This document shows, in pieces, positions 1,222 to 37,687 of a stretch of DNA of 64,000 nt. A model generated the notes under the pieces. It saw only the letters and a program-made list of their open reading frames with translations, made no database searches and was not told the DNA's origin. Positions within the stretch are counted from its first letter, which is position 1, and every line of letters begins with the position of its first letter. The position numbers and the translations under genes were made by a program. This stretch comes from Candidatus Aenigmatarchaeota archaeon (GTDB taxonomy: Archaea > Aenigmatarchaeota > Aenigmatarchaeia > GW2011-AR5): NCBI GenBank assembly GCA_039091535.1, contig JAWCLW010000001.1, forward strand, positions 11,881 through 75,880, read 5' to 3'.

Positions 1222-1596
1222 CTAACACATCACTTTTGTCATCATTTTCTTATATAATTTATCAATATTTTTCTTGTTAACAACGTTGTGATACTTGAAG
1301 CCACCACCAAATGCTTTTGGGATATGCATAAGTTCGTGAATTAATGTCTTTGTTTTTTCTTCCTCACTCATTTTATCAAATCTCTCTGAAATAATCTCTA
1401 TAACATAATGTGTCTTTATATTTAATGCAAACTGCATTATCCTTGGTAATGAATGACATCTCGCAATAACATATTTGCTTTTTGAGCCATAACTACGTAC
1501 ACAAACAATTCTGGAGAAATCGTGATTTATTTTCAACCTTCTAGCAATATTCCTTATTTGTAAATCTATATCTGGTGCGAGAGTATATTTTATCAT
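1222..1596 (-). CDS. Predicted HExxH zinc metallopeptidase-like protein
   Basis: HELMHIPKAFGGGFKYH motif (HExxH plus a downstream His); 124 aa. Confidence 0.45.
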   Translation of the reverse strand: MIKYTLAPDIDLQIRNIARRLKINHDFSRIVCVRSYGSKSKYVIARCHSLPRIMQFALNIKTHYVIEIISERFDKMSEEEKTKTLIHELMHIPKAFGGGFKYHNVVNKKNIDKLYKKMMTKVMC

Positions 1597-2127: not shown

Positions 2128-3543
2128 ATGAGAAAATTATTGTTGTTTGTATTATTTCTTCTGATAGCCAATGTAGTTTTTGCTTTCGAGATAAGTGCAC
2201 CTGAGGGTACAATAGACATAGGTACAGGTAGCACAAAGATTATTAACATAAATCTTACAAGCAACAAGGATGATGATATCACATTTAGTTTTGTAGATGG
2301 AAAGACGTGGATTAATCTGGATGTACAAAAAATTAAAATAAATGCGGGTGAAATAAAAACTGTAAAGGTTTATATTTCACCTTTTTTCACAACACAGTTT
2401 GGACTTTATAAGATCGGTATTGTTGCCGAATCTACGATAAGCAAAGAAACTAAAAAAGCAGATATATTCATTAATGTAAAACGTGGTGAATATATTTACA
2501 TAGACAAGGTTACTGTAAGCGGAAATCTTGAGCCAAAAGGATATGCAAAAATAGAGACAACAATAAAAAATTATAAGTTAAAAACAGTAAATGATATATA
2601 TGTACATACAATTGTTTCATCCCCATTAAGGAAATTATTGGACACAACAATAAAGATAGATAAACTTGATCCAGATGAATCAAAAACAATTGAAAATATT
2701 ATTAATTTTGATAGGCTTGCTGAACCAGGTACATACAACGTAAAAATAATATCAGAATATATGAATGAAAAAAATGAATATGAACAAACATTTGCAGTCA
2801 TAAAAAAAAGTGTAATAACAAAACAATATGAAAAATTTCCATTACTTCTTGGATACGGAAAAACTATAAGAGTAAGAAATGATGGTAATGAAGTTGGTGA
2901 TGAAATTGTTTATGATGATGTGCCAAAATTTGATTCTATATTCTTTTATGGAGATGAACCAACACAAAAGGAAGATGGACGCTATGCATGGAAAATAAAA
3001 GATATAAAACCAGATGAAGAAAAAACAATAACATATTACATAGATTATTCACCATTATTTGTTTTCGTACTAGCAATAATTATAGTTTTTTGGTTCTTTT
3101 TCTATAAATATAGAACTGTAAGAATTAGTAAATTTATTTTAAATAAGAAACACATCGAAGAGGGTGAGGAGTTTACAGTATGTATAAATGTTTATAATGG
3201 TTTAAAGAAACTGGACGAAATTTTGGTACATGATTTTGTCCCATCGATATTTAAAATAAAGGATACAGAAGGACCTGTACCACATAAAAAGACAACAAAT
3301 ATAGGAACAGAATTAACATGGAAATTAAAAGATGTTAAAAGTCATGAAACAAGAATATTAACATATAAAATAATACCAATATTTGGAGTACATGGTACAA
3401 TAAGATTGCCAGAAGCATCTGCAGAATTCAAGTTCGGCAAAAAGTTTGTAAAAAATATCTCAGGATCCCCATCAATTGGTTTAGTTGAAAGTGAAGAAAC
3501 AAAAATAAAATTACTAAGAAGTAAATTTATTTCCAGGAAATAG
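2128..3543 (+). CDS. Secreted/membrane beta-rich protein (signal peptide, CARDB/Ig-like repeats, internal TM helix, C-terminal beta domain)
   Basis: N-terminal signal peptide MRKLLLFVLFLLIANVVFA; repeated beta-strand-rich segments; TM helix PLFVFVLAIIIVFWFFFY followed by KYRTVR. Confidence 0.6.
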   Translation: MRKLLLFVLFLLIANVVFAFEISAPEGTIDIGTGSTKIININLTSNKDDDITFSFVDGKTWINLDVQKIKINAGEIKTVKVYISPFFTTQFGLYKIGIVAESTISKETKKADIFINVKRGEYIYIDKVTVSGNLEPKGYAKIETTIKNYKLKTVNDIYVHTIVSSPLRKLLDTTIKIDKLDPDESKTIENIINFDRLAEPGTYNVKIISEYMNEKNEYEQTFAVIKKSVITKQYEKFPLLLGYGKTIRVRNDGNEVGDEIVYDDVPKFDSIFFYGDEPTQKEDGRYAWKIKDIKPDEEKTITYYIDYSPLFVFVLAIIIVFWFFFYKYRTVRISKFILNKKHIEEGEEFTVCINVYNGLKKLDEILVHDFVPSIFKIKDTEGPVPHKKTTNIGTELTWKLKDVKSHETRILTYKIIPIFGVHGTIRLPEASAEFKFGKKFVKNISGSPSIGLVESEETKIKLLRSKFISRK

Positions 3544-5220: not shown

Positions 5221-5547
5221 ATGAATATTGCACGCATAAAACTTACAGGAAGAGATCCAAAACAATTAGATGAGTTATGTAGAGAAATTAAGGATATCGC
5301 TGAAAAGATAGGTGTATCTGTTTCTGGTCCAATACCATTGCCAACAAAGAAATTAAGAATACCTGTCATGAAAACACCATGTGGTGATGGTATGCATCGT
5401 GGCGGTGGTGGTGGAAACTGGGAGACATGGGAGATGCGTATACACAAGCGCATACTTGATGTTGGTGCAAATGATCGAGTTCTGAGACAAATAACAAGGA
5501 TTAAGATTCCTCATGATGTTAATATTGAAGTTGAATTGACAGATTAA
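5221..5547 (+). CDS. rps10: Ribosomal protein S10 (uS10)
   Basis: ARIKLTG...GPIPLPTK...EMRIHKRILDV signature; start chosen at the internal Met, the ORF track starts at 5209; carries a Gly5 insertion (HRGGGGGNWE). Confidence 0.9.
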   Translation: MNIARIKLTGRDPKQLDELCREIKDIAEKIGVSVSGPIPLPTKKLRIPVMKTPCGDGMHRGGGGGNWETWEMRIHKRILDVGANDRVLRQITRIKIPHDVNIEVELTD

Positions 5548-5676
5548 GTTGATCTTTTTTTAATTATTTTTGAAAATGAGTGTTTATACTCATATATATA
5601 ACATTAAAAGTTATGTTGCGAAACGAAAGTAAAAATATATAAATTCATATTACTAATAAAAATCAAGTGATTTTTC

Positions 5677-6354
5677 ATGAACCTGATATTTTTTGGTCCA
5701 CCAGGCTCTGGAAAAGGAACATACGCATCAAGAGTTTCATCATCACTAGCCATAGCACATATATCAACAGGTGATATGTTCCGTGCAGAAGTTAATGCAA
5801 ACACAAAATTGGGAAAATTAGCTGATAAATACATGAAAGCTGGAAAACTTGTTCCTGACAAAATAACAATAAACATGCTAAAAAAAAGAATAAAAAAACC
5901 TGACTGTAAAAACGGCTTTATTTTAGATGGTTTCCCAAGAACAATAGCACAAATGAAAGCTTTAGAAAAAATTGTAAAAATAGATTTGGTGCTAAATTTT
6001 AAACTTCCAGAAAAAATGATAATACAAAAAACACTTGCAAGAAGGGTTTGCGAAAAATGTGGGGCTATATATAATATTGCCGATATAAAGGTTAAAAATA
6101 TACATCTGCCACCACTTCTTCCAAAAAAAGATGGTATCTGTGATAAATGTGGTGGTCATTTAATACAAAGAAAGGATGATAATATAAAAACAATAAAAGA
6201 TCGTCTAAATATTTATAAAAAACAGACAAAACCTCTTTTAGAATACTATAAAAAGAAAAGATTAATGAAAAATATAAATGTAATTGGCCCACCTGAAGTA
6301 ATGGTGCCAATAATTATTGATGAGATAAAGAAGAATTTTGAAACAAATATATGA
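5677..6354 (+). CDS. adk: Adenylate kinase, long bacterial-type with Zn-binding lid
   Basis: P-loop GPPGSGKGT; lid CEKCG...CDKCGG (CxxC...CxxC); 225 aa. Confidence 0.9.
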   Translation: MNLIFFGPPGSGKGTYASRVSSSLAIAHISTGDMFRAEVNANTKLGKLADKYMKAGKLVPDKITINMLKKRIKKPDCKNGFILDGFPRTIAQMKALEKIVKIDLVLNFKLPEKMIIQKTLARRVCEKCGAIYNIADIKVKNIHLPPLLPKKDGICDKCGGHLIQRKDDNIKTIKDRLNIYKKQTKPLLEYYKKKRLMKNINVIGPPEVMVPIIIDEIKKNFETNI

Positions 6355-8536: not shown

Positions 8537-10021
8537 TTATCTTTCAATGGTATTAGTTGTTTCAATACCATAAAATGATGTTTCACGACTGCCATGCTCG
8601 CTTAAACGTTCTAAAATTGCATTTTCTCTAAATTCTTTTAAATTTCTACAACCAGCATTACTCATAGACGACTTTACTATATTTGCATCATATTCTATGT
8701 TTGGCTTAAGTCTGCCTCTATATTTTACTATACCTTCAACACCCTCAGGGAAAAATGTTTTAATTGTTTCATGACTATATCTACCTAAATTCATAGCTCT
8801 TCTAGAGCCTTCTCCCCATATCTCTTTGTATTTTATTTCGTTTTCTCTTTCATCTGGTTTATCTATAGGTTTTTTTTCTGCGTCAAGTGGTGTACCCTCA
8901 GCCTCAAAAAATTGATTAAAATATTTACCCATCATCAAAGCATCAGCACCAATTGCCAAAGCTATAACCATATCACCAGTATTTTCTATAGAACCATCCA
9001 TAATAACTGGTATATATTTTCCTGTTTTGTTAAAGTATTCATCTCTTTTATTAACAACTTCTATTAAAGATCTCGCTCCTCCACGACCAACGCGCTTAAC
9101 TTCTGTTGTTGTACAAATAGAACCAATTCCCATTCCAACCTTAATAATATCTGCACCATGAGAAACCAAGCAATCAAAACCTTCCTTTGTTACAATGTTA
9201 CCACCACATATTGGAACATTCGGATATTCTTTTTTGAATTCTTTTATAACATTTACTGCCCAATAATTGTATGCGTCAGATGTATCTATAGAAATTAAAT
9301 CAACACCTGCTTCTATAGCAACATCTACTCGTTTCTTCCAACCTTCGTACGTATCTATGGAAACAGCTATATAGTTTGGTCTATCTTTTTTGAAAGCAAA
9401 TTTAATTAGATGACCTTCATTGTCTAAAATTGGCATAATTTTTTTTCCATTTTTTTCCATATATTCCAAAATTTTATCTTCTGTTGCTGTAATAAGACAA
9501 AAATCAATGTTTTCTCTATTTTTATTTTTTTTCATTAAATCCTTCATCTTTGCATCATTAGGATGCTTTTCCGGACTTATATAATAGAATACACCAAGAT
9601 ATTTTCCATATTCATTTACTATTGGAATTGTTGAGTGTCCATATTTTTTTATTTTTTCTTCATAAACCCTTTCAAATTTATCTTCTGGACCCGCTGTGAT
9701 TATTCCTGGATAATTATGAATTATCAGTTTATCTTTTTTTGCCTTAATATCTTTTATAATTCTAATAATCTCTTCTAATTCTAAAGAACGTGGGAGAAAT
9801 GGTATCATCCCATTTCTTGCCACCTCTAATGCCATTTTGTATCCAGTAACAGAACGCATAGCAGCTGGTATAAATGGGAACTTTAATTTAATCAAAGGGG
9901 AAAGTTCAGTTTCTATATTAATATTTTGTATTATGCAATTCTTATCTGTATAGCTTGGTAAAAGAACATAATCTTTAAAACTTGTTGATCTCTCATCATC
10001 TCCTCTAATTTCTTTTGCCAT
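8537..10021 (-). CDS. guaB: IMP dehydrogenase family protein with CBS pair
   Basis: TIM-barrel IMPDH/GMPR fold with catalytic-loop KVGMGIGSICTTTEV; CBS-like insert; 494 aa. Confidence 0.65.
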   Translation of the reverse strand: MAKEIRGDDERSTSFKDYVLLPSYTDKNCIIQNINIETELSPLIKLKFPFIPAAMRSVTGYKMALEVARNGMIPFLPRSLELEEIIRIIKDIKAKKDKLIIHNYPGIITAGPEDKFERVYEEKIKKYGHSTIPIVNEYGKYLGVFYYISPEKHPNDAKMKDLMKKNKNRENIDFCLITATEDKILEYMEKNGKKIMPILDNEGHLIKFAFKKDRPNYIAVSIDTYEGWKKRVDVAIEAGVDLISIDTSDAYNYWAVNVIKEFKKEYPNVPICGGNIVTKEGFDCLVSHGADIIKVGMGIGSICTTTEVKRVGRGGARSLIEVVNKRDEYFNKTGKYIPVIMDGSIENTGDMVIALAIGADALMMGKYFNQFFEAEGTPLDAEKKPIDKPDERENEIKYKEIWGEGSRRAMNLGRYSHETIKTFFPEGVEGIVKYRGRLKPNIEYDANIVKSSMSNAGCRNLKEFRENAILERLSEHGSRETSFYGIETTNTIER

Positions 10022-10033
10022 AATTGATCGATA

Positions 10034-10408
10034 TCACCACTTCTTAAAGAAGCTTGTACTTAATACTTTCAAATCAAAATTACCATTATTGTTTTGACCA
10101 CTTAAAATACCATATATGTTTTCATTTGTTTTAAGATTTTTTAATTCAGAGTATAGCATAATATCTTTATCCCCATCTTTGTCTATATCTATTAATTCTA
10201 CTTTTTCTATTCTTTTTATTTCATAATTGTTTATTTTTGGATCGATTAGTCTATTTCCTTTTTCGTCGATTATTTCGTTTTTAGTAAAATAAATCAATTC
10301 ATATTTACCATCTTTGTTCATATCAACTAAACCGATATAATTTTTGCTTGGTTGACAAGATATCAATGTCGAAAATACTAACGGTAAAACAAGCTTTTTA
10401 ATCTGCAT
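10034..10408 (-). CDS. Secreted lipoprotein-like protein with DKDGDKD calcium-binding-like motifs
   Basis: Signal peptide plus lipobox-like LISC; DxDxDG-type motifs. Confidence 0.4.
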   Translation of the reverse strand: MQIKKLVLPLVFSTLISCQPSKNYIGLVDMNKDGKYELIYFTKNEIIDEKGNRLIDPKINNYEIKRIEKVELIDIDKDGDKDIMLYSELKNLKTNENIYGILSGQNNNGNFDLKVLSTSFFKKW

Positions 10409-10509
10409 TGTACCACCCCATTTTATTTATTAAATATAAAAATAAAAAATATTTAAAATTATATAAAAAATCAAATCGGATAAAAATACATTACAAATGA
10501 ATTACAAAT

Positions 10510-10704
10510 TTATTTCTTCACAATCTTTATGCATTTTGTAGGGCAGATATCTGCTGCTTCTTGGTTGCATCCTATGCTATTCAATTCTGTTTTCTTAGGT
10601 TTTGATTTATCGCCTTTCATCTCCCAATTCTCAGGACATACAGAAACACATGCCCCACATCCTATGCATTCACTAACATTGTGAATTATTTTTATTTTTG
10701 CCAT
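10510..10704 (-). CDS. fdx: 4Fe-4S ferredoxin (small)
   Basis: CIGCGACVSVCP plus a second partial motif C..C..CP; 64 aa. Confidence 0.8.
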   Translation of the reverse strand: MAKIKIIHNVSECIGCGACVSVCPENWEMKGDKSKPKKTELNSIGCNQEAADICPTKCIKIVKK

Positions 10705-10733
10705 ATTTATCCACCCACCTATTCTTTATCGAT

Positions 10734-10994
10734 TCATTCACGAATTTTATTTTTAATTGCATTATTCATTTCTCTGAGCATTTCATCCAATTCCTTTTTT
10801 GTCATGCCATGAGAAATGGCGCCTTGCTCTATTGTTTCATAAAGTGCAACATGACAACCTACACAATGTAGTCCATAATCAAACATTATATTAATGGTTT
10901 CTGGATATTTTCTCACAACCTCGCCAAGTGATGTATCTTTTGTAATTATATTAATTTCTTTTTGTTTTTTTGTTTTCTTCTGCATAAAAATCAC
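10734..10994 (-). CDS. DUF1858 / ScdA-N-like redox disulfide protein
   Basis: GEVVRKYPETINIMFDYGLHCVGCHVALYETIEQGAISHG matches the hybrid-cluster-protein-associated redox disulfide domain. Confidence 0.7.
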   Translation of the reverse strand: MIFMQKKTKKQKEINIITKDTSLGEVVRKYPETINIMFDYGLHCVGCHVALYETIEQGAISHGMTKKELDEMLREMNNAIKNKIRE

Positions 10995-11041
10995 ATAGTT
11001 ATTTTATTATGAATAATATTTATAATTTTGATATAATGGTC

Positions 11042-11137
11042 TCAACTGCATAAACCAAATCCACAATTCCTACAAAATGTACAACCCTCCTGATGAATCA
11101 AAGGAGAGCCACAATCTGGACAAATTTCTTTGTTCAT
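11042..11137 (-). CDS. 31-aa six-Cys Zn-ribbon mini-protein (MNKEICPDCGSPLIHQEGCTFCRNCGFGLCS)
   Basis: Absent from the ORF track (<60 aa); strong SD GAGGTGA 7 nt upstream of the ATG; 12 nt downstream of the cobA stop on the same strand; CxxC-x9-CxxC-xx-C-x4-C. Confidence 0.5.
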   Translation of the reverse strand: MNKEICPDCGSPLIHQEGCTFCRNCGFGLCS

Positions 11138-11153
11138 TGGAATCACCTCATTT

Positions 11154-11729
11154 TTAATATTGTATGCCTTTTGTTGTAGGCAATTTCTCCGGAATTTTTA
11201 TCTCAACAATCTCATTGACAAAATCTGATTTGTCAATTAATTCTTTTGGTGCATATCTCCCAGTCAAAATAACATTTGTTCTTTTTGGTATTTTATTTAA
11301 AAAATCTATTACATCATCAATGTTTAGAAGATTCCAGTGCAAGGCTAAATTAATTTCATCTAAAATCAATAGATGTGGTTTCTTTTCCTTCATAATCTTT
11401 TTTGCAAACTCTAATGCTTCATTTGCAAGTTTTTTGTCAAATTCTTCCAAATTCTTAACAATAAATTTTTTTCCACCGAATCTAAATGTTTTTGAACCTT
11501 TATTATTAACTTTGAACCACCCAGGACGACCAAACTGATATATTTCATAATAAGGTCTCAACCTCTTTTCTATTTTGCATTCTCCAATATTTTTCCACCA
11601 TTTTAAAAACTGTATTATAATAACTTTTTTTTTATGGCCAACAGAGCGCAAAGCTAGACCTAATGCATTTGTTGTTTTACCGCCACCAGAACCAGTATAA
11701 AGATAGATATGTCCCATAATTATCATCAT
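11154..11729 (-). CDS. cobA: Cob(I)alamin adenosyltransferase, CobA/CobO/BtuR family
   Basis: P-loop YTGSGGGKTTNALGLALR, then VIIIQFLK...LLILDEIN, characteristic of CobA-type ATP:corrinoid adenosyltransferases. Confidence 0.85.
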   Translation of the reverse strand: MMIIMGHIYLYTGSGGGKTTNALGLALRSVGHKKKVIIIQFLKWWKNIGECKIEKRLRPYYEIYQFGRPGWFKVNNKGSKTFRFGGKKFIVKNLEEFDKKLANEALEFAKKIMKEKKPHLLILDEINLALHWNLLNIDDVIDFLNKIPKRTNVILTGRYAPKELIDKSDFVNEIVEIKIPEKLPTTKGIQY

Positions 11730-19001: not shown

Positions 19002-19907
19002 TTATTTTTTCTTTATGAATGGTTTGATAAACCATCTTATAAATGGTACAAATAATGCACGAAATGCAACAATAATTACTAGCGCATAAATAACATACAT
19101 CCATACTGGTGTATCTGATTTATTCAGTAACGCAGCCTCTTCTGCTGTGATAAGATTTAAATAAACAACATTATTTTGAACGATCTCATCCCCATCAATA
19201 TTTTTATATATCATGGTTATATTTAGTGGATATACACCCTTACTTACATTTTTGAATTTCAGCTCAAAGTCAACAGAATCAAAATCATCACCTTCAATGT
19301 TGCCAACAAAAATTTCATTTCTTTTTATTTCAGCTATATCTGTTTCTGCTTTTACAAGTGTATGGTATGCTGTTCCATCATCCAAATTCACAATATCAAG
19401 TGTAATTTTTGATGTACCAAGTGGATATGGTATTGGCTCTATATCAACGAACAACGCTCTTAAATCTGCTTTTTCCTTCTTTTTACCTTCAACAACTGTA
19501 ATCATGAATTTATTTTCCTTAAATACAAGACTATCATTATCAGTATAATATTTTGTTTTTATATTTATTTCACTTGTTGCATTCGGTGCATCTTTATCAA
19601 CAAGCAATCTATACTCTAATCTTATTTCACCAAATCTTACAATCGATTCATAATGCCTTTCTGAATCATTATCCTGAAGTATAAATGGATATTTTGGTTC
19701 AAGTATAAATGTAATATTTCTTATAGTCTTTACGCCAATATTGTTAGCATTTATCCATATAGTAACATATTTTCCTGCCTCTGCTGGGTATGGATCGTAT
19801 TTCGCAAGGTCTAATTTAAGCATTCCATCATCAAATAATGGTATTGTAACATTAGTTGCATATGTTATTGTTGATAAAAGTAATAAGAAAATTATTATTT
19901 TTTTCAT
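19002..19907 (-). CDS. Secreted beta-rich protein with C-terminal TM anchor, encoded between the ABC ATPase and permease
   Basis: Signal peptide MKKIIIFLLLLSTITYA; C-terminal TM VWMYVIYALVIIVAF plus a basic tail; composition similar to the 2128-3543 protein. Confidence 0.6.
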   Translation of the reverse strand: MKKIIIFLLLLSTITYATNVTIPLFDDGMLKLDLAKYDPYPAEAGKYVTIWINANNIGVKTIRNITFILEPKYPFILQDNDSERHYESIVRFGEIRLEYRLLVDKDAPNATSEINIKTKYYTDNDSLVFKENKFMITVVEGKKKEKADLRALFVDIEPIPYPLGTSKITLDIVNLDDGTAYHTLVKAETDIAEIKRNEIFVGNIEGDDFDSVDFELKFKNVSKGVYPLNITMIYKNIDGDEIVQNNVVYLNLITAEEAALLNKSDTPVWMYVIYALVIIVAFRALFVPFIRWFIKPFIKKK

Positions 19908-26552: not shown

Positions 26553-27322
26553 GTGAATATTTTATGAAAAAAAATATAGTCAAATTGAGAATATCAGATT
26601 TAATTTTTATAGTTATTATTGTATTCCTTATAGGTTTTTTATTTGGTTTAGGTTCTATCCCAAAAGAGATAAAAAAAACATCAGAATTCAAGCAACAAAA
26701 TATAAATGAAACAATAATAGAGATTGGTATACCTGCTGTTGATAGCAAAGGTAATGGTGTTGTCGGAAAACTTGAAACAATTGTTAGACCAGGGACAGGT
26801 TTAGTTTTAGTAAATATAAACAATGTACTTGCACAATATGATACACAATACTCTGGACGTGTGGCAGCAAAGGTTGCCAGCGAATATACAAAAACAAATA
26901 TGAGTAATCTTGATGTTATATATAACATAAAAGTTAATGCATCCATTGTTGAAGGTCCATCCGCTGGCGCAAGCATGGCACTATCAATAATTTTGGCGCT
27001 TGAAAATAAGAAATCAAATCCCAATGTTATGATTACAGGTACAATAAATGAGGATGGCACAATAGGACCTGTTGGCGCAATATACGAAAAGGCACTTGCT
27101 GCAAAAAATGCAAATGCAACAATTTTCCTTGTTCCTCAAGATCAATCAACTCAATATGGATATAAAAGAGAAAGAGAATGCAAAAAATTTGATTTTATAG
27201 AATATTGTAGTATAAAATATATAGCAGAAAAAATTAACATAGGCGAAAGCCTTAATATAACAGTCAAAGAAGTAAGAAACATAGACGATGCAGTTAAGTA
27301 TTTTATTCAAAATTCGATATGA
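26546..27322 (+). CDS. Membrane-anchored Lon-like S16 protease domain protein (no AAA module)
   Basis: N-terminal TM; Lon catalytic Ser motif EGPSAGASMALSI; overlaps the upstream BFN gene by 7 nt. Confidence 0.75.
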   Translation: MLGEYFMKKNIVKLRISDLIFIVIIVFLIGFLFGLGSIPKEIKKTSEFKQQNINETIIEIGIPAVDSKGNGVVGKLETIVRPGTGLVLVNINNVLAQYDTQYSGRVAAKVASEYTKTNMSNLDVIYNIKVNASIVEGPSAGASMALSIILALENKKSNPNVMITGTINEDGTIGPVGAIYEKALAAKNANATIFLVPQDQSTQYGYKRERECKKFDFIEYCSIKYIAEKINIGESLNITVKEVRNIDDAVKYFIQNSI

Positions 27323-28553
27323 TCTTTATATTGTTATCAAGTTTTCTAAAAATATTTTCAAGCATTTCTATGTTATGTTTTATATTATTTTTCATTCGTT
27401 CTTTCTCAGAATTTTTTCCTTGTAATATTTTTTTTATTTTTTCTATTTCCTTCTGTTTGTTTGTTATATCATTTTCTATTTTATTTCTTTTTTCAATATA
27501 TGGTATAATTATGTTATTTAGGATATTTTCTTTTTCATTTATTTGGGATACCAAACTAGAATAATGTTCTTTTATTGATATAAAAAAATCTATACTTCTA
27601 TATAACATAAGTATTTTATTTTTTTCCTTATCATCTACAGAAATCATGCCATTATTTACATAGTCCTTTATCCGTTCAAGTATCTTTTTTATTTCATTAT
27701 TTTTATCAGACAAAAGAAATGTCTCAGTGGATATAATATATTCATTTAATACATCTTTTTCATTTTTTGAAAGATTTATCTCTTTTGTTTCTGCAAGATG
27801 CTGAAGTTTTTTCATTGGTCTAAGTATACTTCCAAATTCTGTATCTATTTGTTGTTTTATTGCATCTCTCTGTCTCTTCAAGTTTTCAATTTCTTTGTTT
27901 AATTCATCTATGTTCTTTTCTTCAATTTTTTTTCTGTTGTTTTCTAACTCTTTTCTTAAATCTATTATTTCTGAAAAAAGTTTTTTTTCGTTATTAATCA
28001 AATCATTTATTTCATTTTCGATATTATTTAATTTATTTTGTATCTCATTAATCCAATCTATGCATTTTTCTGCATGTTCCTTTCTTTCTAATATTGGAAT
28101 ACTAATAACTTTTCTAAAATCGTTTATTTTTCTTTTTAATATTTTTGATTGCGATGCTATTTTGCTCATTTCATTTTTAAAAATAGCAAGCTGTTTAAAC
28201 TCTTTGATACTCGGGTTTTCTACAACTTTCAGAATATTGTCAACATTATCAGTAAACTTTATCAATTCTGAATATGAAAATGAAGGATTATTAAAATTAA
28301 AATACGTCAAACATCTTTCACAATATTTATTTTTAATGTTATTTGCAAAATTATCTTCAATATTTCTCTCCTTTAGTTGTGTTATTAGATTTTTTAGTAT
28401 AGATAATTCCTTAAGCAAATCATCTAAGATTAACTTTATTTTTTTCTCAATTTCGCTTATTTTTCTCTTTGTTTTTTCTTCCAAAAATTTTTTTGCATTG
28501 TCAATTTTTAATTCTTTCTTTTTCTTATTTAATATTTTAAACATTTTTATCAT
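27303..28553 (-). CDS. Coiled-coil K/E/N-rich protein, hypothetical
   Basis: 416 aa, almost entirely heptad-like charged repeats. Confidence 0.5.
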   Translation of the reverse strand: MIKMFKILNKKKKELKIDNAKKFLEEKTKRKISEIEKKIKLILDDLLKELSILKNLITQLKERNIEDNFANNIKNKYCERCLTYFNFNNPSFSYSELIKFTDNVDNILKVVENPSIKEFKQLAIFKNEMSKIASQSKILKRKINDFRKVISIPILERKEHAEKCIDWINEIQNKLNNIENEINDLINNEKKLFSEIIDLRKELENNRKKIEEKNIDELNKEIENLKRQRDAIKQQIDTEFGSILRPMKKLQHLAETKEINLSKNEKDVLNEYIISTETFLLSDKNNEIKKILERIKDYVNNGMISVDDKEKNKILMLYRSIDFFISIKEHYSSLVSQINEKENILNNIIIPYIEKRNKIENDITNKQKEIEKIKKILQGKNSEKERMKNNIKHNIEMLENIFRKLDNNIKIISNFE

Positions 28554-28615: not shown

Positions 28616-29413
28616 ATGAAAATAAAAAATAAAATATTCCTGATAATTATACTCCTAATTTTATTAGGTATTTTTATTATCTTTAATACGTCAAATATAC
28701 AAATATTGGAAACACAGAAACTTGTAACAAAGGTTATCGATGGCGACACTATAATTGTTGAGGGTGGACATATTGTTAGATTATTGGGTATAGATGCTGA
28801 CGAGAAGGGATACCCCTGTTATGAGTCTGCAAAACAAAGGCTCGAAGAACTTGTATTGAACAAAAGAATTTTTTTGGAACAAGATAAAAAAGATAAAGAT
28901 CAATATAAAAGATATCTTAGATATGTTTTTCTTGATGATGATAATATAAATCTAAAATTGGTTAAAGAAGGGTTTGTGGTTGCTCATTTTTCAGATGAAA
29001 ACATAAAATATAAAGAAGAAATTATTAACGCTGAAAAATTTGCAATAGAAAACAAGATTGGTTGTAAATGGGGTAATATATCAAAAACTGAAAATATGAC
29101 ATTATCTAGTTTGAAAGAAGATGTTATTGACGCCTGTGATGCAATAAAGTATGTTAATGAAGAAAAAACTGTCAAAGGTAAAATAGTTGATGGCTATAAA
29201 AGTGTAACAAATACTGTTTTTCTTAATTTTGAAAAGCCATATCCAAATCAGTGTTTTACAGCGGTTATATTTTCTTATGATTTAAAAAAGTTTCCTGAAA
29301 ATCCACAAAATTATTATGAAGGGAAAATTGTAAAAATAAGTGGAAAAATAAAAGAATATAAAGGGAAACCTGAAATTATTTTAAGCAATATGTCTCAAAT
29401 AGAAATTTTATAA
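28616..29413 (+). CDS. Membrane-anchored thermonuclease (SNase) with C-terminal OB-fold
   Basis: N-terminal TM; VIDGDTIIVEGGHIVRLLGIDADE SNase motif; C-terminal YEGKIVKISGKIKEYKGKPEIIL OB-fold. Confidence 0.8.
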   Translation: MKIKNKIFLIIILLILLGIFIIFNTSNIQILETQKLVTKVIDGDTIIVEGGHIVRLLGIDADEKGYPCYESAKQRLEELVLNKRIFLEQDKKDKDQYKRYLRYVFLDDDNINLKLVKEGFVVAHFSDENIKYKEEIINAEKFAIENKIGCKWGNISKTENMTLSSLKEDVIDACDAIKYVNEEKTVKGKIVDGYKSVTNTVFLNFEKPYPNQCFTAVIFSYDLKKFPENPQNYYEGKIVKISGKIKEYKGKPEIILSNMSQIEIL

Positions 29414-33829: not shown

Positions 33830-34609
33830 TTATAATTTCTTTATCCTTCCTGGTCTTGGTTCAAAACATATACCATCAGATAATAATTCATTTATCACAG
33901 CATCGAGAACATCCTCTGCAAGTCCAGATGCCTCTATCAATTCAGAATAATCACAGCCAGATCCTTGATCAAGACTTTCTATTAATTCTAGAACTTTATT
34001 TTTTGCATCGCTTGTTTGTTCCTCTTTTTTCTCAAGAAATTCTTGAAGTTGTAAAATTGATTCTACATATTCTTTATCAATACCAAAACGCTCCTTCATT
34101 ATTCTTATCAATTCTTCTAAATCGCTTACTTGTTTTTGATATTCAAGTACTATTTCTTTTCTTTTCTCTAATTTTTTTTGTTGTTCTCTAATTTCTAATT
34201 CTCGCAAAATCTCAAAATTAGGGTTTTCATTCTTTTGTATAATTTCTGGTATAAGATATATCTCACCTTGAAATTCTTTTATACGTGCTATAATATCTAT
34301 CACATCACCAATATTTATATTATCAAACATGGAGACTGCATTGAAAACTTTTACGCGTATTGTGTCTGTACCATCGTCAATAGTAAGACTCGCAAATTTT
34401 CCTGTTTCTGACAAAAATTTATCAACAACAGTAGCTAGAACACGCACACGAGACAAACGCAAACCTAAATCTGTAATTACATAACTTGGATTAAATCCTT
34501 CACCTGGAATAAATTTTCCATTGGTTATAGACTTTATCTTAGTTTTTACAGATGTTATGCGTCTATTTTCGATACGAATCACCCCACTATTGTTATTAGA
34601 TGCATACAA
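33830..34609 (-). CDS. OB-fold plus winged-helix protein, RPA32-like; C-terminal wH closely resembles the MCM C-terminus
   Basis: OB-fold RVLATVVD...LTIDDGTDTIRVKVFN...GDVIDIIARI; C-terminal GICFEPRPGRIKKL versus MCM GVIFEPRPGYLRKV; lies immediately downstream of mcm. Confidence 0.6.
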   Translation of the reverse strand: MYASNNNSGVIRIENRRITSVKTKIKSITNGKFIPGEGFNPSYVITDLGLRLSRVRVLATVVDKFLSETGKFASLTIDDGTDTIRVKVFNAVSMFDNINIGDVIDIIARIKEFQGEIYLIPEIIQKNENPNFEILRELEIREQQKKLEKRKEIVLEYQKQVSDLEELIRIMKERFGIDKEYVESILQLQEFLEKKEEQTSDAKNKVLELIESLDQGSGCDYSELIEASGLAEDVLDAVINELLSDGICFEPRPGRIKKL

Positions 34610-34612
34610 TTA

Positions 34613-36589
34613 TCATACCTTTCTTAAATATCCTGGCCTTGGTTCAAAAATCACACCATCTTTTTTTAGTATATCTATAATCTCATCTATATCCTTTATC
34701 CCTTGGTTTTCTGCTTCTGCTTTAAGATCTTCAACTGCAACTTCATGTGCTTCTTTCTGTAATGATTCAAGTATATCTAGTATCAATGGAACTTTCCTAC
34801 GTCTGCTTGATGGAACACCACCATCCATACGATCTACATCAAAGCGTTTTGTTTCAAAATCGTAACCTAGTTGCATCATAGAATATCTCATTAACCTTAT
34901 TGCTCTTTCTGCATCCTCGACACGAACTTTTGTGTCTAATCTTACTTTTGCTGATGCTTCTGCAAGTCGTATTAATGCCTCATATTGTCTTAATGTTATG
35001 CTTATTGTAGGTGTTTCCTCACCACCATAAATATTTCTCATTTCAACATAGAATTTTTTTAATATATCAGCAGCCTCTTGTGTTAGTTCGATATCTTGTA
35101 TCTGTTTTGCATATGCTATATATTTTCTTAAAAGATTTATGTTTATCACAGGTTCGATACGCTCTGGACTCGTCCTTGACGTGATTATGTGATCTGCCAT
35201 TTTTTCGTCAGTTGTGATATCTGGCTTATCCCTTATTGCAAATTTGAGATCAAACCTCGAAAGTAATGTTTCTGGTATTAAAATTTGATCACCTATTGGT
35301 TTATATGGGTCAAACCTACCAAGTTTTGGATTTGCACCAGCAAGTATAGATGTTTGTGCCGGTAATGTTGCCACAATACTTGCTTTGGCGATGCTTACGG
35401 TTTCGACTGAAGTAGCCTCATGCATTGCTATTTGATCATCCTTACTCATTTTGTCAAACTCATCAATAGCAATCAAACCTTTGTTGCATAAAATTAATGC
35501 ACCTGCTTCAAGCACCCAACCACCTATTGCCTCGTTCTTCACAACAGTAGCAGTTAACCCAGCACCAGAAACACCCGAACCAGAAACATATTTCCCACGT
35601 GGTACAATAGAAGATATAAGTTTCAGGATTTGTGTTTTACCAACACCTGGATCACCTGTAAGCAAAATATGGATATTGCCTCTTATTCTTGTACCATCTG
35701 GCATTTTATGTGGTATGCCGCCAAACAATTGCAAAACAAGAGCCTCTTTTATTTCATCATAACCATATATGGTTGGTGCAATTGATGCCTTCAATTTTTC
35801 ATATATATCAGGGCTACTTGCAAGTTCTTTTATCATTCTTTCTTCTTCTGATGTTATTTCTAATTCCTCAAATTCTATGTCGCTTGGTTCAAAATAAATT
35901 GCATCCATATAAATATCCATTCTTGTACTTAGTTTTCCTTTTATACGTTTTGGTAATTCTTTTACTATGCCATATAATTTTATTCTATTCCCTGGATCAG
36001 ATTTTCTTTGCATGCGTGGGGTTGTTAATCCTTCTTTTAAAAAAATACTTATCTCACCAGGTCTTTCACCTGTTGTTAATTCAAAAGGCTCAACCCCGAC
36101 AAGCCATCGTATATCGTACATTTTCTTATCAATAAGAGGAAAATCACCACGCCTTCCACATTCGCATAAACCAGGTTTTTGTATTATATTTGTAGTCTGT
36201 GGAACTGTTATCTTTGCACTACACTCTGGACATTCAAATATTGCTTCGTAAATTTGTGGTTTCACTTCTGATGCTGATTTAATAATAGTATCTATACAAA
36301 AAAGCTTTCCAATGTGTTTTGCACGGAGATTTCTTATTCTTATCTGCCTGCTTGGTGGGAGATTCTTTATCCCGATTTCCATTTTTTCACCAGCGATGTT
36401 GCTAGCTGCTTTTTTAAGTGCGTCTATAACATTGTTCGGGTCCTCTAATAATTGGTCTGCAATTAGTGGATCAAACCTATCGAGTAAACTAAAATCGATA
36501 ACAATCAACCTTTCCTCTTTTGCTGCTTTGAGTATCTCTGTATGATATTTTTCACGCAAGAATTCGTCCAACCTATCAATTAATTCCAT
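34613..36589 (-). CDS. mcm: MCM replicative helicase
   Basis: C4 zinc finger CPECSAK...CECGRRG; Walker A GDPGVGKTQ; arginine finger SRFDL; C-terminal wH; 658 aa, no intein. Confidence 0.95.
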   Translation of the reverse strand: MELIDRLDEFLREKYHTEILKAAKEERLIVIDFSLLDRFDPLIADQLLEDPNNVIDALKKAASNIAGEKMEIGIKNLPPSRQIRIRNLRAKHIGKLFCIDTIIKSASEVKPQIYEAIFECPECSAKITVPQTTNIIQKPGLCECGRRGDFPLIDKKMYDIRWLVGVEPFELTTGERPGEISIFLKEGLTTPRMQRKSDPGNRIKLYGIVKELPKRIKGKLSTRMDIYMDAIYFEPSDIEFEELEITSEEERMIKELASSPDIYEKLKASIAPTIYGYDEIKEALVLQLFGGIPHKMPDGTRIRGNIHILLTGDPGVGKTQILKLISSIVPRGKYVSGSGVSGAGLTATVVKNEAIGGWVLEAGALILCNKGLIAIDEFDKMSKDDQIAMHEATSVETVSIAKASIVATLPAQTSILAGANPKLGRFDPYKPIGDQILIPETLLSRFDLKFAIRDKPDITTDEKMADHIITSRTSPERIEPVININLLRKYIAYAKQIQDIELTQEAADILKKFYVEMRNIYGGEETPTISITLRQYEALIRLAEASAKVRLDTKVRVEDAERAIRLMRYSMMQLGYDFETKRFDVDRMDGGVPSSRRRKVPLILDILESLQKEAHEVAVEDLKAEAENQGIKDIDEIIDILKKDGVIFEPRPGYLRKV

Positions 36590-36660
36590 AAATAATCTTA
36601 AAACAAAAAAGTATTTGAGTATATTGGGGTGCGTTTCTTTTATTTCATATGGAAAATATA

Positions 36661-37206
36661 TTATTTGTTTTTAAGAGATCTTAGTGTAGCCTCTAATTTT
36701 CTTACAGCTGCTTTCACAGCATCCATACTTTTTGCGCCTGCACAAACAACACGACCTGATGAGAATAATAGGAAGGCAACCTTTGGCTCATAAATTCTAT
36801 AAACTAATCCTGGAAATTGTTCTGGTTCATATTCACTATCCTCTAATTGGAATGCTAATTGATCAAGATTAAGTTCTTTACCAAGATTAACGGCAACAAC
36901 TATATTCTCTATTTTTACTTTTAGAGTATCTTCGTTGAATCTTATGCCAATCTTTTTTATGTTTTTTACAGTTTTTTTTAACGCCTCTTTTGCAGCTGCT
37001 GTGCTACGCGCACCAACACATATTATTTTTCCAGAACGAAATATTAATGTGGCAACCTTTGGCTCATCTAGACGATAAACAAGACCTGGAAACTGCTCTG
37101 GCTCATATTCACTTGCTTCCAAAACATTTAGAAGTTTGTCAAGCGATATTATTTTTTTTATGTCAGTAGAAGCAACAACATTTTCTATCTTTATTTTTTC
37201 TACCAT
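36661..37206 (-). CDS. tbp: TATA-box binding protein
   Basis: Two direct repeats (ENVVASTDI.../ENIVVAVNL..., PEQFPGLVYR twice); 181 aa. Confidence 0.95.
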   Translation of the reverse strand: MVEKIKIENVVASTDIKKIISLDKLLNVLEASEYEPEQFPGLVYRLDEPKVATLIFRSGKIICVGARSTAAAKEALKKTVKNIKKIGIRFNEDTLKVKIENIVVAVNLGKELNLDQLAFQLEDSEYEPEQFPGLVYRIYEPKVAFLLFSSGRVVCAGAKSMDAVKAAVRKLEATLRSLKNK

Positions 37207-37291: not shown

Positions 37292-37687
37292 GTGATATAC
37301 AGAGAAATTATTGAAATAGAAACAAAAAGTAATAAATATATTGATATAACAAATAAAATTTCAGATATAGTTGAAAATTGCCATATAAAATATGGTTTAT
37401 GTCATATATTTCTAGAAGGTACGACTGCTGGATTTTTACTTAATGAAAACGATCCAATGCTATTAGCGGATTTTAAAAACGTTTTCAAAAAAATTGCACC
37501 AAAAAAGAAATTATATCAACATCCATCAAATGCATTTTCACATATTAGGGCATCTATGTTGAGACAGGATTTAACATTTCCTATTAATGATGGTAAGCTT
37601 ATTCTTGGTACATGGCAAAACATTTTACTTTGGGAGTTTGACATTAAAAAAAGAAAAAGAAAGATAGTAATAACAATCTCTGATTAA
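37292..37687 (+). CDS. YjbQ/UPF0047 family protein
   Basis: GLCHIFLEGTTAGFLLNENDP...HIRASMLRQDLTFPINDGKLILGTWQNILLWEFD matches YjbQ. Confidence 0.8.
   Translation: MIYREIIEIETKSNKYIDITNKISDIVENCHIKYGLCHIFLEGTTAGFLLNENDPMLLADFKNVFKKIAPKKKLYQHPSNAFSHIRASMLRQDLTFPINDGKLILGTWQNILLWEFDIKKRKRKIVITISD

Follow-up and report, generated by a model that had tools for sequence, protein, structure and literature searches.

An Rpa2 (RPA32) orthologue encoded directly downstream of the MCM helicase, in a gene cluster conserved among Aenigmatarchaeota

The DNA analysed here (the window) is a stretch of 64,000 nucleotides (nt) from Candidatus Aenigmatarchaeota archaeon, contig JAWCLW010000001.1, with a G+C content of 29%, in which three minus-strand genes are found in a row: those for the TATA-binding protein (TBP) and for the replicative helicase MCM, and an open reading frame (ORF) of 259 amino acids (aa). 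The latter, located at 33830-34609 in its maximal form starting from a TTG, had been noticed in a preliminary description, made from the sequence alone, as encoding an RPA32-like protein whose terminus resembles that of MCM; it is identified here as an orthologue of archaeal and eukaryotic Rpa2/RPA32. The MCM gene (34613-36589, minus strand) encodes 658 aa without an intein, matches NCBIfam NF040949 (E 9e-196) and contains the Pfam domains MCM_N, MCM_OB, MCM P-loop (3.4e-85), MCM_lid and, at the C-terminus, MCM_WH_arc. This last domain, a winged helix (wH), maps at 34616-34786 on the same strand; it is recognized with 30 bits when the C-terminus is searched in isolation, and is matched by phmmer to the solved MCM winged helices 2m45 (4e-8) and 2ma3 (2e-7). 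MCM terminates with KKDGVIFEPRPGYLRKV, the 259-aa ORF with LSDGICFEPRPGRIKKL.

The two genes meet at TGA TAA TTG, where TGA is the MCM stop codon, TTG the first possible Rpa2 start and TAA (34610-34612, minus strand) the spacer between them. The distance of 3 nt originally reported holds for the TTG start; however, the GTG at 34582 is probably the true start, because the best database match, a 100% identical NCBI protein from a 'Candidatus Aenigmatarchaeota' metagenome-assembled genome, is 250 aa long, and homologues start near 'M(V/I)RIE..' or 'MEKKR'. The protein would then be of 250 aa as well, and the spacer of 30 nt. With either start the genes are tightly linked on the same strand. Residues are numbered below on the 259-aa form.

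When the PDB sequences were searched by phmmer, Rpa2 (RPA32) of Pyrococcus abyssi was aligned over its full length, with query residues 15-257 facing chain residues 3-267, at E-values of 4.7e-16 (9f26_C), about 5e-16 (8oej_B) and 8.8e-16 (8aaj_B), and an identity of about 27%. A full-length AlphaFold2 model, built on 26 homologues, reached a mean predicted local distance difference test (pLDDT) of 85.7 and consists of an OB fold, a long helix, a helix-turn-helix and a C-terminal wH. The OB fold (residues 54-126; 34232-34450, minus strand), which by superposition is equivalent to OB-3/DBD-D, has barrel strands with pLDDT above 90, and is also detected by Pfam (PF01336, residues 55-122, E 1.9e-9). 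The long helix that follows (residues 130-158; 34136-34222, minus strand) is equivalent to the RPA trimerisation helix (PMC10122647); the helix-turn-helix and linker helices (residues 164-195; 34025-34120, minus strand) correspond to predicted helices 164-175 and 179-213, and the wH occupies 33833-34024 on the same strand. By Foldseek, the best matches of the model were P. abyssi Rpa2 chains 8aaj_B and 8aas_B, with an E-value of 2e-14, a TM score of 0.90 (0.91 for 8aas_B) and a root mean square deviation (rmsd) of 1.9 A over about 180 columns. Both the long helix and helix 164-175, as predicted, fall within the 184-column superposition on residues 1-184 of P. abyssi Rpa2.

The presence of a wH in the small protein, proposed from sequence in the preliminary description together with the OB fold, is supported by a separate, confident model of the last 66 residues, obtained with 14 alignment rows (pLDDT 89, topology H-b-H-H-b-b). 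By TM score, this model lies nearest to solved Rpa2 winged helices, namely 9f27 (TM 0.85, rmsd 1.7 A) and 9f26_C (TM 0.83, rmsd 1.4 A), as well as 9f2a_C. Its wing carries the beta-hairpin motif DGICFEPRPGRIKKL (33833-33874, minus strand), nearly invariant among the 26 close homologues, and the pattern G..[FY]E[PI][KR].G..K.L is kept down to 30% identity. Two cysteines of the domain, C219 (33955-33953) and C248 (33868-33866), are invariant or nearly so within the Aenigmatarchaeota family; the former is found in GCDY on strand 1, the latter in CFEP on strand 2, and both are variably lost among distant homologues. At E<=1e-3 the family comprises at least 2001 clusters at 50% identity. Taken together, the phmmer alignment, the structural models and the family evidence establish the protein as an Rpa2 orthologue, and the gene can be annotated as such, in place of 'OB-fold domain-containing protein'. 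The protein itself is ordinary; with a family of this size, the earlier suggestion of a lineage-specific replisome accessory factor is no longer tenable.

Other complexes contain proteins with an OB fold and a wH, and the possibility was considered of a CST/Stn1-like, an RMI2-like or a haloarchaeal RPAP (COG3390) protein, rather than a true Rpa2. Stn1 (E 3e-9), RPA32 and RMI2 are indeed found among the lower Foldseek matches of the full-length model, family members give weak Pfam matches to RMI2 and Stn1, and homologues are labelled 'RPA family protein' by JGI. This label probably comes from COG3390, which we take to cover RPAP as well. P. abyssi Rpa2 is nevertheless the best match both by sequence (E 5e-16) and by structure (TM 0.90), whereas Stn1 and RMI2 superpose partly or poorly; Stn1 has two wH domains and RMI2 none, and RPAP genes adjoin Rpa1-type genes (PMC2643942, PMC3914693), an arrangement not seen here. 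Membership of one of these other complexes is therefore regarded as very unlikely.

The function of the protein may be viewed in the light of the work on P. abyssi, where the OB fold of Rpa2 binds single-stranded DNA and the following helix forms the trimerisation bundle (PMC10122647, PMC11686378), followed in turn by a helix-turn-helix (PMC10122647), while the wH serves to recruit PolD and, through PriS, primase (PMC10122647, PMC11686378). By analogy, the OB fold of the protein described here would bind single-stranded DNA, the helix after it would join the three-helix bundle of the RPA trimerisation core, and the wH, carried by a helical linker, would serve as a protein-recruitment module, possibly for primase and PolD as in P. 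abyssi. In the latter, the wing of the wH contacts PriS and constitutes the canonical protein-binding face (PMC11686378); of the four P. abyssi residues that form salt bridges with PriS, three (E250, E259 and K266; PMC11686378) are kept, in the phmmer alignment, as E241, E250 and K257.

The similarity between the ends of Rpa2 and MCM was then evaluated. Both proteins end with the pattern G..FEPRPG..(K/R)K(L/V), which is absent elsewhere in the window, and their termini are aligned by BLASTP with 10 identities out of 18 (E 3e-4 for the pair), so that the likeness pointed out in the preliminary description is real. In the 181 six-frame ORFs of at least 70 aa of the window, totalling 30,486 residues, the motif [FY]EP[KR].G occurs twice, against about 0.045 occurrences expected from composition, and both occurrences are near the C-termini of these two proteins. 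Profiles of the Rpa2 and MCM wH domains, taken from 62 distinct loci, were compared by hhalign: they are aligned over 54 columns, through all three helices, with a probability of 97.9%, an E-value of 6.7e-13 and a score of 64.2, whereas none of 30 column-shuffled controls scored above 19.0. The similarity is thus not confined to a pentapeptide. When the last 16 residues were removed the register was preserved, with a weak signal (score 21.6, E 3.4e-4, to be compared with the 19.0 of the best shuffled full-length control); most of the profile signal lies in the wing.

Among Pfam families, MCM_WH_arc (PF21120) is the top wH family for Aenigmatarchaeota Rpa2, being matched at E<0.1 by 22 of the 26 close homologues (best 1.4e-7), with RPA_C (PF08784) in second place (18 of 26, best 9.3e-6). 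For the Rpa2 of the window the values are 20.3 bits (E 5.9e-4) and 13.2-15 bits (E 0.04-0.15), respectively, both below the gathering thresholds of 26.1 and 22.6 bits. P. abyssi Rpa2, too, matches MCM_WH_arc better than RPA_C (E 1.8e-3 versus 1.3e-2, the RPA_C score of 16.7 bits being likewise below threshold), and PF21120 is carried by some Rpa2 homologues in precomputed annotation. Reciprocally, the wH of the MCM in the window weakly matches RPA_C (E 0.022), and a tblastn search with Rpa2 residues 199-259 matched the MCM wH of another lineage (37% over 70 aa). MCM winged helices end with KGAIFEPARGYLK in Methanothermobacter, DGRVYEPRAGFYR in Thermococcus and SGIIYEAKPECYKKV in Saccharolobus, and P. 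abyssi Rpa2 with QGEIYEPETGYYK. Since P. abyssi Rpa2, which is encoded away from MCM, and the MCMs of other archaea show the same pattern, the likeness is old and family-wide across archaea, and the idea that it is peculiar to this gene pair or lineage has to be abandoned. No other winged-helix family seems as closely related to the wH of archaeal MCM as that of RPA32, and the reverse. The nuclear magnetic resonance (NMR) structures of the MCM wH were absent from the top 50 Foldseek matches of the Rpa2 wH model; according to Wiedemann et al. (PMC4357721), the fold closest to the MCM wH is that of Z-alpha.

A domain duplication had been put forward as one explanation for the shared terminus. 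The case considered here is that of a recent local event, by duplication or gene conversion, in which this lineage would have copied the 3' end of one of the two genes, MCM or its downstream neighbour, onto the other. At first sight the nucleotide sequences would agree with it: the last 45 nt of the two genes are identical at 32 positions, their motif core TTTGAACCAAGNCCAGGA at 17 out of 18, and the two copies sit in adjacent genes. The codons shared in the core are, however, the most or second most used synonymous codons of the genome, with the exception of an AGG for arginine in MCM (TTT 73%, GAA 76%, CCA 62%, AGA 57%, and GGA 30%, against 54% for GGT), and the identity outside the wing is only about 22%. 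Each family, moreover, keeps its motif separately across archaea, and wH domains from the same genome are no closer than those from different genomes, either for the whole domain (29.4% versus 29.0%, permutation p 0.18) or for the wing (47.0% versus 47.3%). In a second, distant clade Rpa2 has changed to ...GEIFEI(K/R)PGKLKVLE, while MCM has kept ...GDIFEP(K/R)RGFIQKI. Neither the identity comparison nor that between clades gave any indication that the two domains were recently duplicated, underwent gene conversion or co-evolved; pair identities, codon usage and the clade-wise motif change lead to the rejection of a recent duplication or conversion, which is considered extremely improbable.

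The synteny survey proposed at the outset was performed by two scans. The first covered one genome per GTDB species and used patterns derived from Rpa2 only, so that MCM adjacency was not selected for; it collected 65 loci, nearly all from Aenigmatarchaeota. Sufficient upstream DNA was available for 61 of these loci, and in 60 of them MCM directly precedes Rpa2 in the same orientation. The median distance from MCM to the first aligned Rpa2 residue was 80 nt (60 nt or less in 29 loci). TBP precedes MCM in most loci, and a UPF0047/YjbQ gene diverges from TBP in many. The same arrangement was present on two contigs labelled Hydrothermarchaeota and Methanobacteriota. Seven more distant homologues (29-42% identity) with usable upstream sequence were sampled, and five had the MCM-Rpa2 pair; three of these five were followed by aIF2beta, and two of these three also had TBP upstream, while the remaining two of the seven loci showed Rpa2-aIF2beta without MCM. 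The second scan, of metagenome contigs, was seeded with the second Rpa2 clade: MCM lies upstream of Rpa2 in 52 of 59 informative loci, with TBP further upstream in 30 and aIF2beta downstream in 36. The cluster is old and conserved in Aenigmatarchaeota and in at least one other deep archaeal clade, and the counts in the two clades indicate TBP-MCM-Rpa2-aIF2beta as the likely ancestral order. A further homologue search, with a broad Rpa2 profile, returned only Aenigmatarchaeota-like proteins and none from other phyla, and the broad Rpa2 alignments were too divergent to yield scan patterns. In the literature, MCM-Gins23-aIF2beta has been described in Thermococcales and MCM-aIF2beta in M. kandleri and M. 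thermautotrophicus, and RPA32/COG3390 genes are known to adjoin Rpa1-type genes (PMC2643942, PMC3914693); in a search of limited reach, no description of an MCM-Rpa2 cluster was found. The protein is thus a known one, in a conserved gene context that is apparently undescribed.

Within the window, TBP is found at 36661-37206 on the minus strand (Pfam TBP, 2.6e-59), and the divergent UPF0047/YjbQ gene, conserved in Aenigmatarchaeota, at 37292-37687 on the plus strand (PF01894, 2.5e-35). The region between TBP and MCM (36590-36660, minus strand) is A/T-rich and includes the T-run CTTTTTTGTTTT. The terminator of TBP and the promoter of MCM are probably located in this region, and the T-run suggests that MCM and Rpa2 constitute a unit of their own. 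On the other side, the aIF2beta part of the cluster has been lost and Rpa2 is adjoined by a convergent NifU-like gene, so that the co-directional run ends with Rpa2. Given the spacer of 3-30 nt on the same strand, which leaves no room for regulatory signals, the co-transcription of MCM and Rpa2 envisaged earlier is plausible; helicase and single-stranded DNA-binding subunit would then probably be made together.

A number of variations on the cluster were observed along the way. The TBP-MCM pair is in itself a conserved linkage of transcription and replication genes: in the majority of Aenigmatarchaeota loci, and likewise in the second clade, TBP immediately precedes MCM, mostly in the same direction. 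Next to Rpa2 on its downstream side, or one gene further, aIF2beta is found in L051 (7750-8169), L073, L075, L076, L078 and L079, and in 36 of the loci L080-L159, and NMD3, DUF424, eIF1A and RIO1 often come after it; with aIF2beta placed behind Rpa2, the association of replication with translation genes already published for MCM-aIF2beta is extended. On the 602-kb contig of L078 the adjacency of MCM has been lost, and Rpa2-aIF2beta is directly followed by a TnpB/Cas12f1-like gene (9291-11174), perhaps a trace of a mobile element that disrupted the cluster. A conserved ORF of about 110 aa, with the motif FFSDSFSVLFNPHKFVFDFKQSTPKV ... EPTYIG, separates MCM from Rpa2 in a deep Aenigmatarchaeota clade (L061-L066; for example 6654-6980 in L062); in the AR5-type genomes L003, L004 and L011 an ORF of 188 aa (5382-5948) occupies this place, having no Pfam match on record and a sequence (FFDLET...HN..FD) that by eye is DEDD-exonuclease-like. 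Insertions in other loci are unrelated, and by eye some resemble acetyltransferases, a lyase-like enzyme or a membrane protein. Many MCM genes of Aenigmatarchaeota exceed that of the window by 1-3 kb, as seen in L001/L002/L060, L008, L018, L019, L021, L026, L028, L036, L041, L043, L054 and L065; in L001 (2253-5879, 1208 aa) Intein_splicing and LAGLIDADG_3 are found inside the P-loop domain.

As a whole, the reading of the protein as an Rpa2 orthologue with RPA-type roles, encoded in an old cluster linked to MCM, whose wH resembles that of MCM by ancient relationship rather than by local duplication, is held with good confidence. Several observations weigh against it. No gene for Rpa1 or Rpa3 was found in the window, which is part of the genome, nor in some 0.9 Mb of DNA flanking related loci, a search made without an Rpa1 query sequence; a heterotrimer with Rpa1 and Rpa3 is assumed by analogy. 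Residue E261 of P. abyssi Rpa2, the fourth of those that form salt bridges with PriS and a contact of PolD as well, is replaced by arginine or lysine here (R252), as in the MCM motif, and the partner interface may differ from that of P. abyssi. All Foldseek E-values of the wH model are above 1e-3, with Z-alpha, O-methyltransferase and MarR winged helices scoring alike; by fold search alone, the modelled domain would be classed as a generic short-winged wH. As to co-transcription, for which the evidence is the spacing, the distance between MCM and Rpa2 exceeds 200 nt in 17 of the 61 related loci, some of them with unrelated inserted genes.

The search for the other RPA subunits included Pfam analysis of 40 window ORFs, which gave neither Rpa1 nor Rpa3, and a hidden Markov model of the Rpa2 OB fold, run on all ORFs of the window and of 79 loci, which returned just two further proteins. 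One, in the window (28616-29413, plus strand, 265 aa), carries an OB fold at its C-terminus (3e-4) besides a staphylococcal-nuclease domain (4e-14) and was discarded, as it is not an RPA subunit. The other, a 109-aa Ten1/Rpa3-like OB protein from L079 (12291-12620), is a candidate Rpa3 that gives weak matches to Ten1_2 (6e-4) and tRNA_anti-codon and shows relationship to the OB fold of Rpa2 (E 2.3e-8). Its gene adjoins TFS; PCNA is found about 1 kb beyond, and the cluster is 3.5 kb away. Used as a phmmer query, it matched only Rpa2 paralogues; of the 16 close relatives retrieved by a database search, one bears the label Nanoarchaeia and none that of Aenigmatarchaeota, the L079 locus being itself Nanoarchaeia-like. 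As for the position of the gene, Rpa2 is not clustered with Rpa1 and Rpa3 here, an association that is typical of Thermococcales and Methanococcales, and not a defining one.

The lack of a neighbouring Rpa1 or Rpa3 gene, within the limits just given, would also suit a protein that acts mainly with the helicase, and not within RPA. In one variant, both wH domains would use the shared wing surface to engage a common third factor, be it primase, PolD or Orc1, or else to bind one another, with a role in loading, regulation or hand-off at the fork. The adjacency of MCM and Rpa2 over deep divergence (60 of 61 and 52 of 59 loci) fits such a dedicated partner, as does the place of Rpa2 in the cluster, which is that of the MCM partner Gins23 in the MCM-Gins23-aIF2beta cluster of Thermococcales (PMC2643942); the shared motif, in addition, is in the wing, the canonical protein-binding face of P. 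abyssi Rpa2 (PMC11686378). On the other hand, the whole Rpa2 architecture is retained, trimerisation helix included, a small Rpa3/Ten1-like OB protein is encoded near the cluster in one related lineage (L079), and P. abyssi Rpa2, although encoded apart from MCM, shows the wH likeness as well. The two wH domains, furthermore, do not co-vary within genomes or between clades, and gene adjacency shows co-regulation, not contact. A role mainly as MCM partner is thus unlikely, and an RPA-type Rpa2 remains the preferred reading. A bolder version, in which the TBP-MCM-Rpa2-aIF2beta cluster marks direct functional coupling of helicase and RPA in these archaea with small genomes, with the shared wing as docking site for one partner, is rather doubtful. 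If true, the helicase could pass this partner (PriS, PolD or Orc1) on to RPA-coated DNA at the fork, and in the most reduced lineages Rpa2 might work without a canonical Rpa1/Rpa3 core.

Of the two explanations originally offered for the shared terminus, a common interaction surface, as a docking surface on the wH domains of MCM and Rpa2, is the one that may hold, with low probability. The concentration of the likeness in the wing, which Rpa2 uses to bind primase, leads to a testable idea on what the poorly understood MCM wH might bind. In uncultivated archaea, over very deep divergence, Rpa2 has been uncoupled from the other RPA genes and kept behind MCM; this linkage, by which the MCM-Gins23-aIF2beta association of replication with translation genes is extended, is a hint, not a proof, that helicase and RPA are co-regulated or in contact.

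Elsewhere in the window, a few other ORFs were recorded. A 124-aa ORF at 1222-1596 (minus strand) matches the 'putative phage metallopeptidase' family PF18894 (8.5e-22), in an otherwise housekeeping region. The 471-aa ORF at 2128-3543 (plus strand), whose sole Pfam match is a weak one to Top6b_C (9.5e-7), may encode a divergent topoisomerase VI B-like protein. Two minus-strand ORFs, at 19002-19907 (301 aa) and 27303-28553 (416 aa), have no Pfam match at E<=1e-3.

Among known systems, the closest are the Rpa2 proteins of P. abyssi and P. furiosus (PDB 8aaj, 8aas, 8oej, 9f26, 9f27), of the same length class and module order. P. abyssi Rpa2 shares with the window protein the OB fold, the trimerisation helix, the helix-turn-helix, the linker and the C-terminal wH (TM 0.90 for the core, 0.85 for the wH), with a wing that likewise ends with G.IYEP..G..K; its gene belongs to an Rpa1-Rpa3-Rpa2 operon, whereas that of the window follows MCM, and the linker is shorter and less Glu-rich here. 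Eukaryotic RPA32, and Stn1 of the CST complex, also have an OB fold, a helix and a C-terminal wH for protein recruitment (Foldseek E 3e-9 to 1e-6); compared with them, at identities of 12-23%, the window protein has no N-terminal phosphorylation region, and Stn1 differs by its second wH. The archaeal MCM wH (PF21120; 2m45, 2ma3; PMC4357721) shares with that of Rpa2 the short-winged ('truncated') form, ending with G.[IV][FY]EP..G.[YFI].[KR], and both families structurally resemble Z-alpha domains (PMC4357721); the former is, however, attached to an AAA+ helicase and not to an OB protein, and it is known to act in Orc1 binding and in autoinhibition rather than in recruiting polymerases. The RPAP proteins (COG3390) of haloarchaea and methanogens are, like the window protein, distant RPA32-related OB proteins, whose genes are in tandem with an Rpa1-type gene, encoding OB and zinc-finger domains (PMC2643942, PMC3376784), while the upstream gene here is MCM. 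Finally, the MCM-Gins23-aIF2beta and MCM-aIF2beta clusters of Thermococcales, Methanopyrus and Methanothermobacter (PMC2643942) similarly bring together MCM, a small replication gene and aIF2beta; in the clusters described here, of the form TBP-MCM-Rpa2-(0-1 gene)-aIF2beta, the middle gene is Rpa2 instead of Gins23, and TBP is added upstream.

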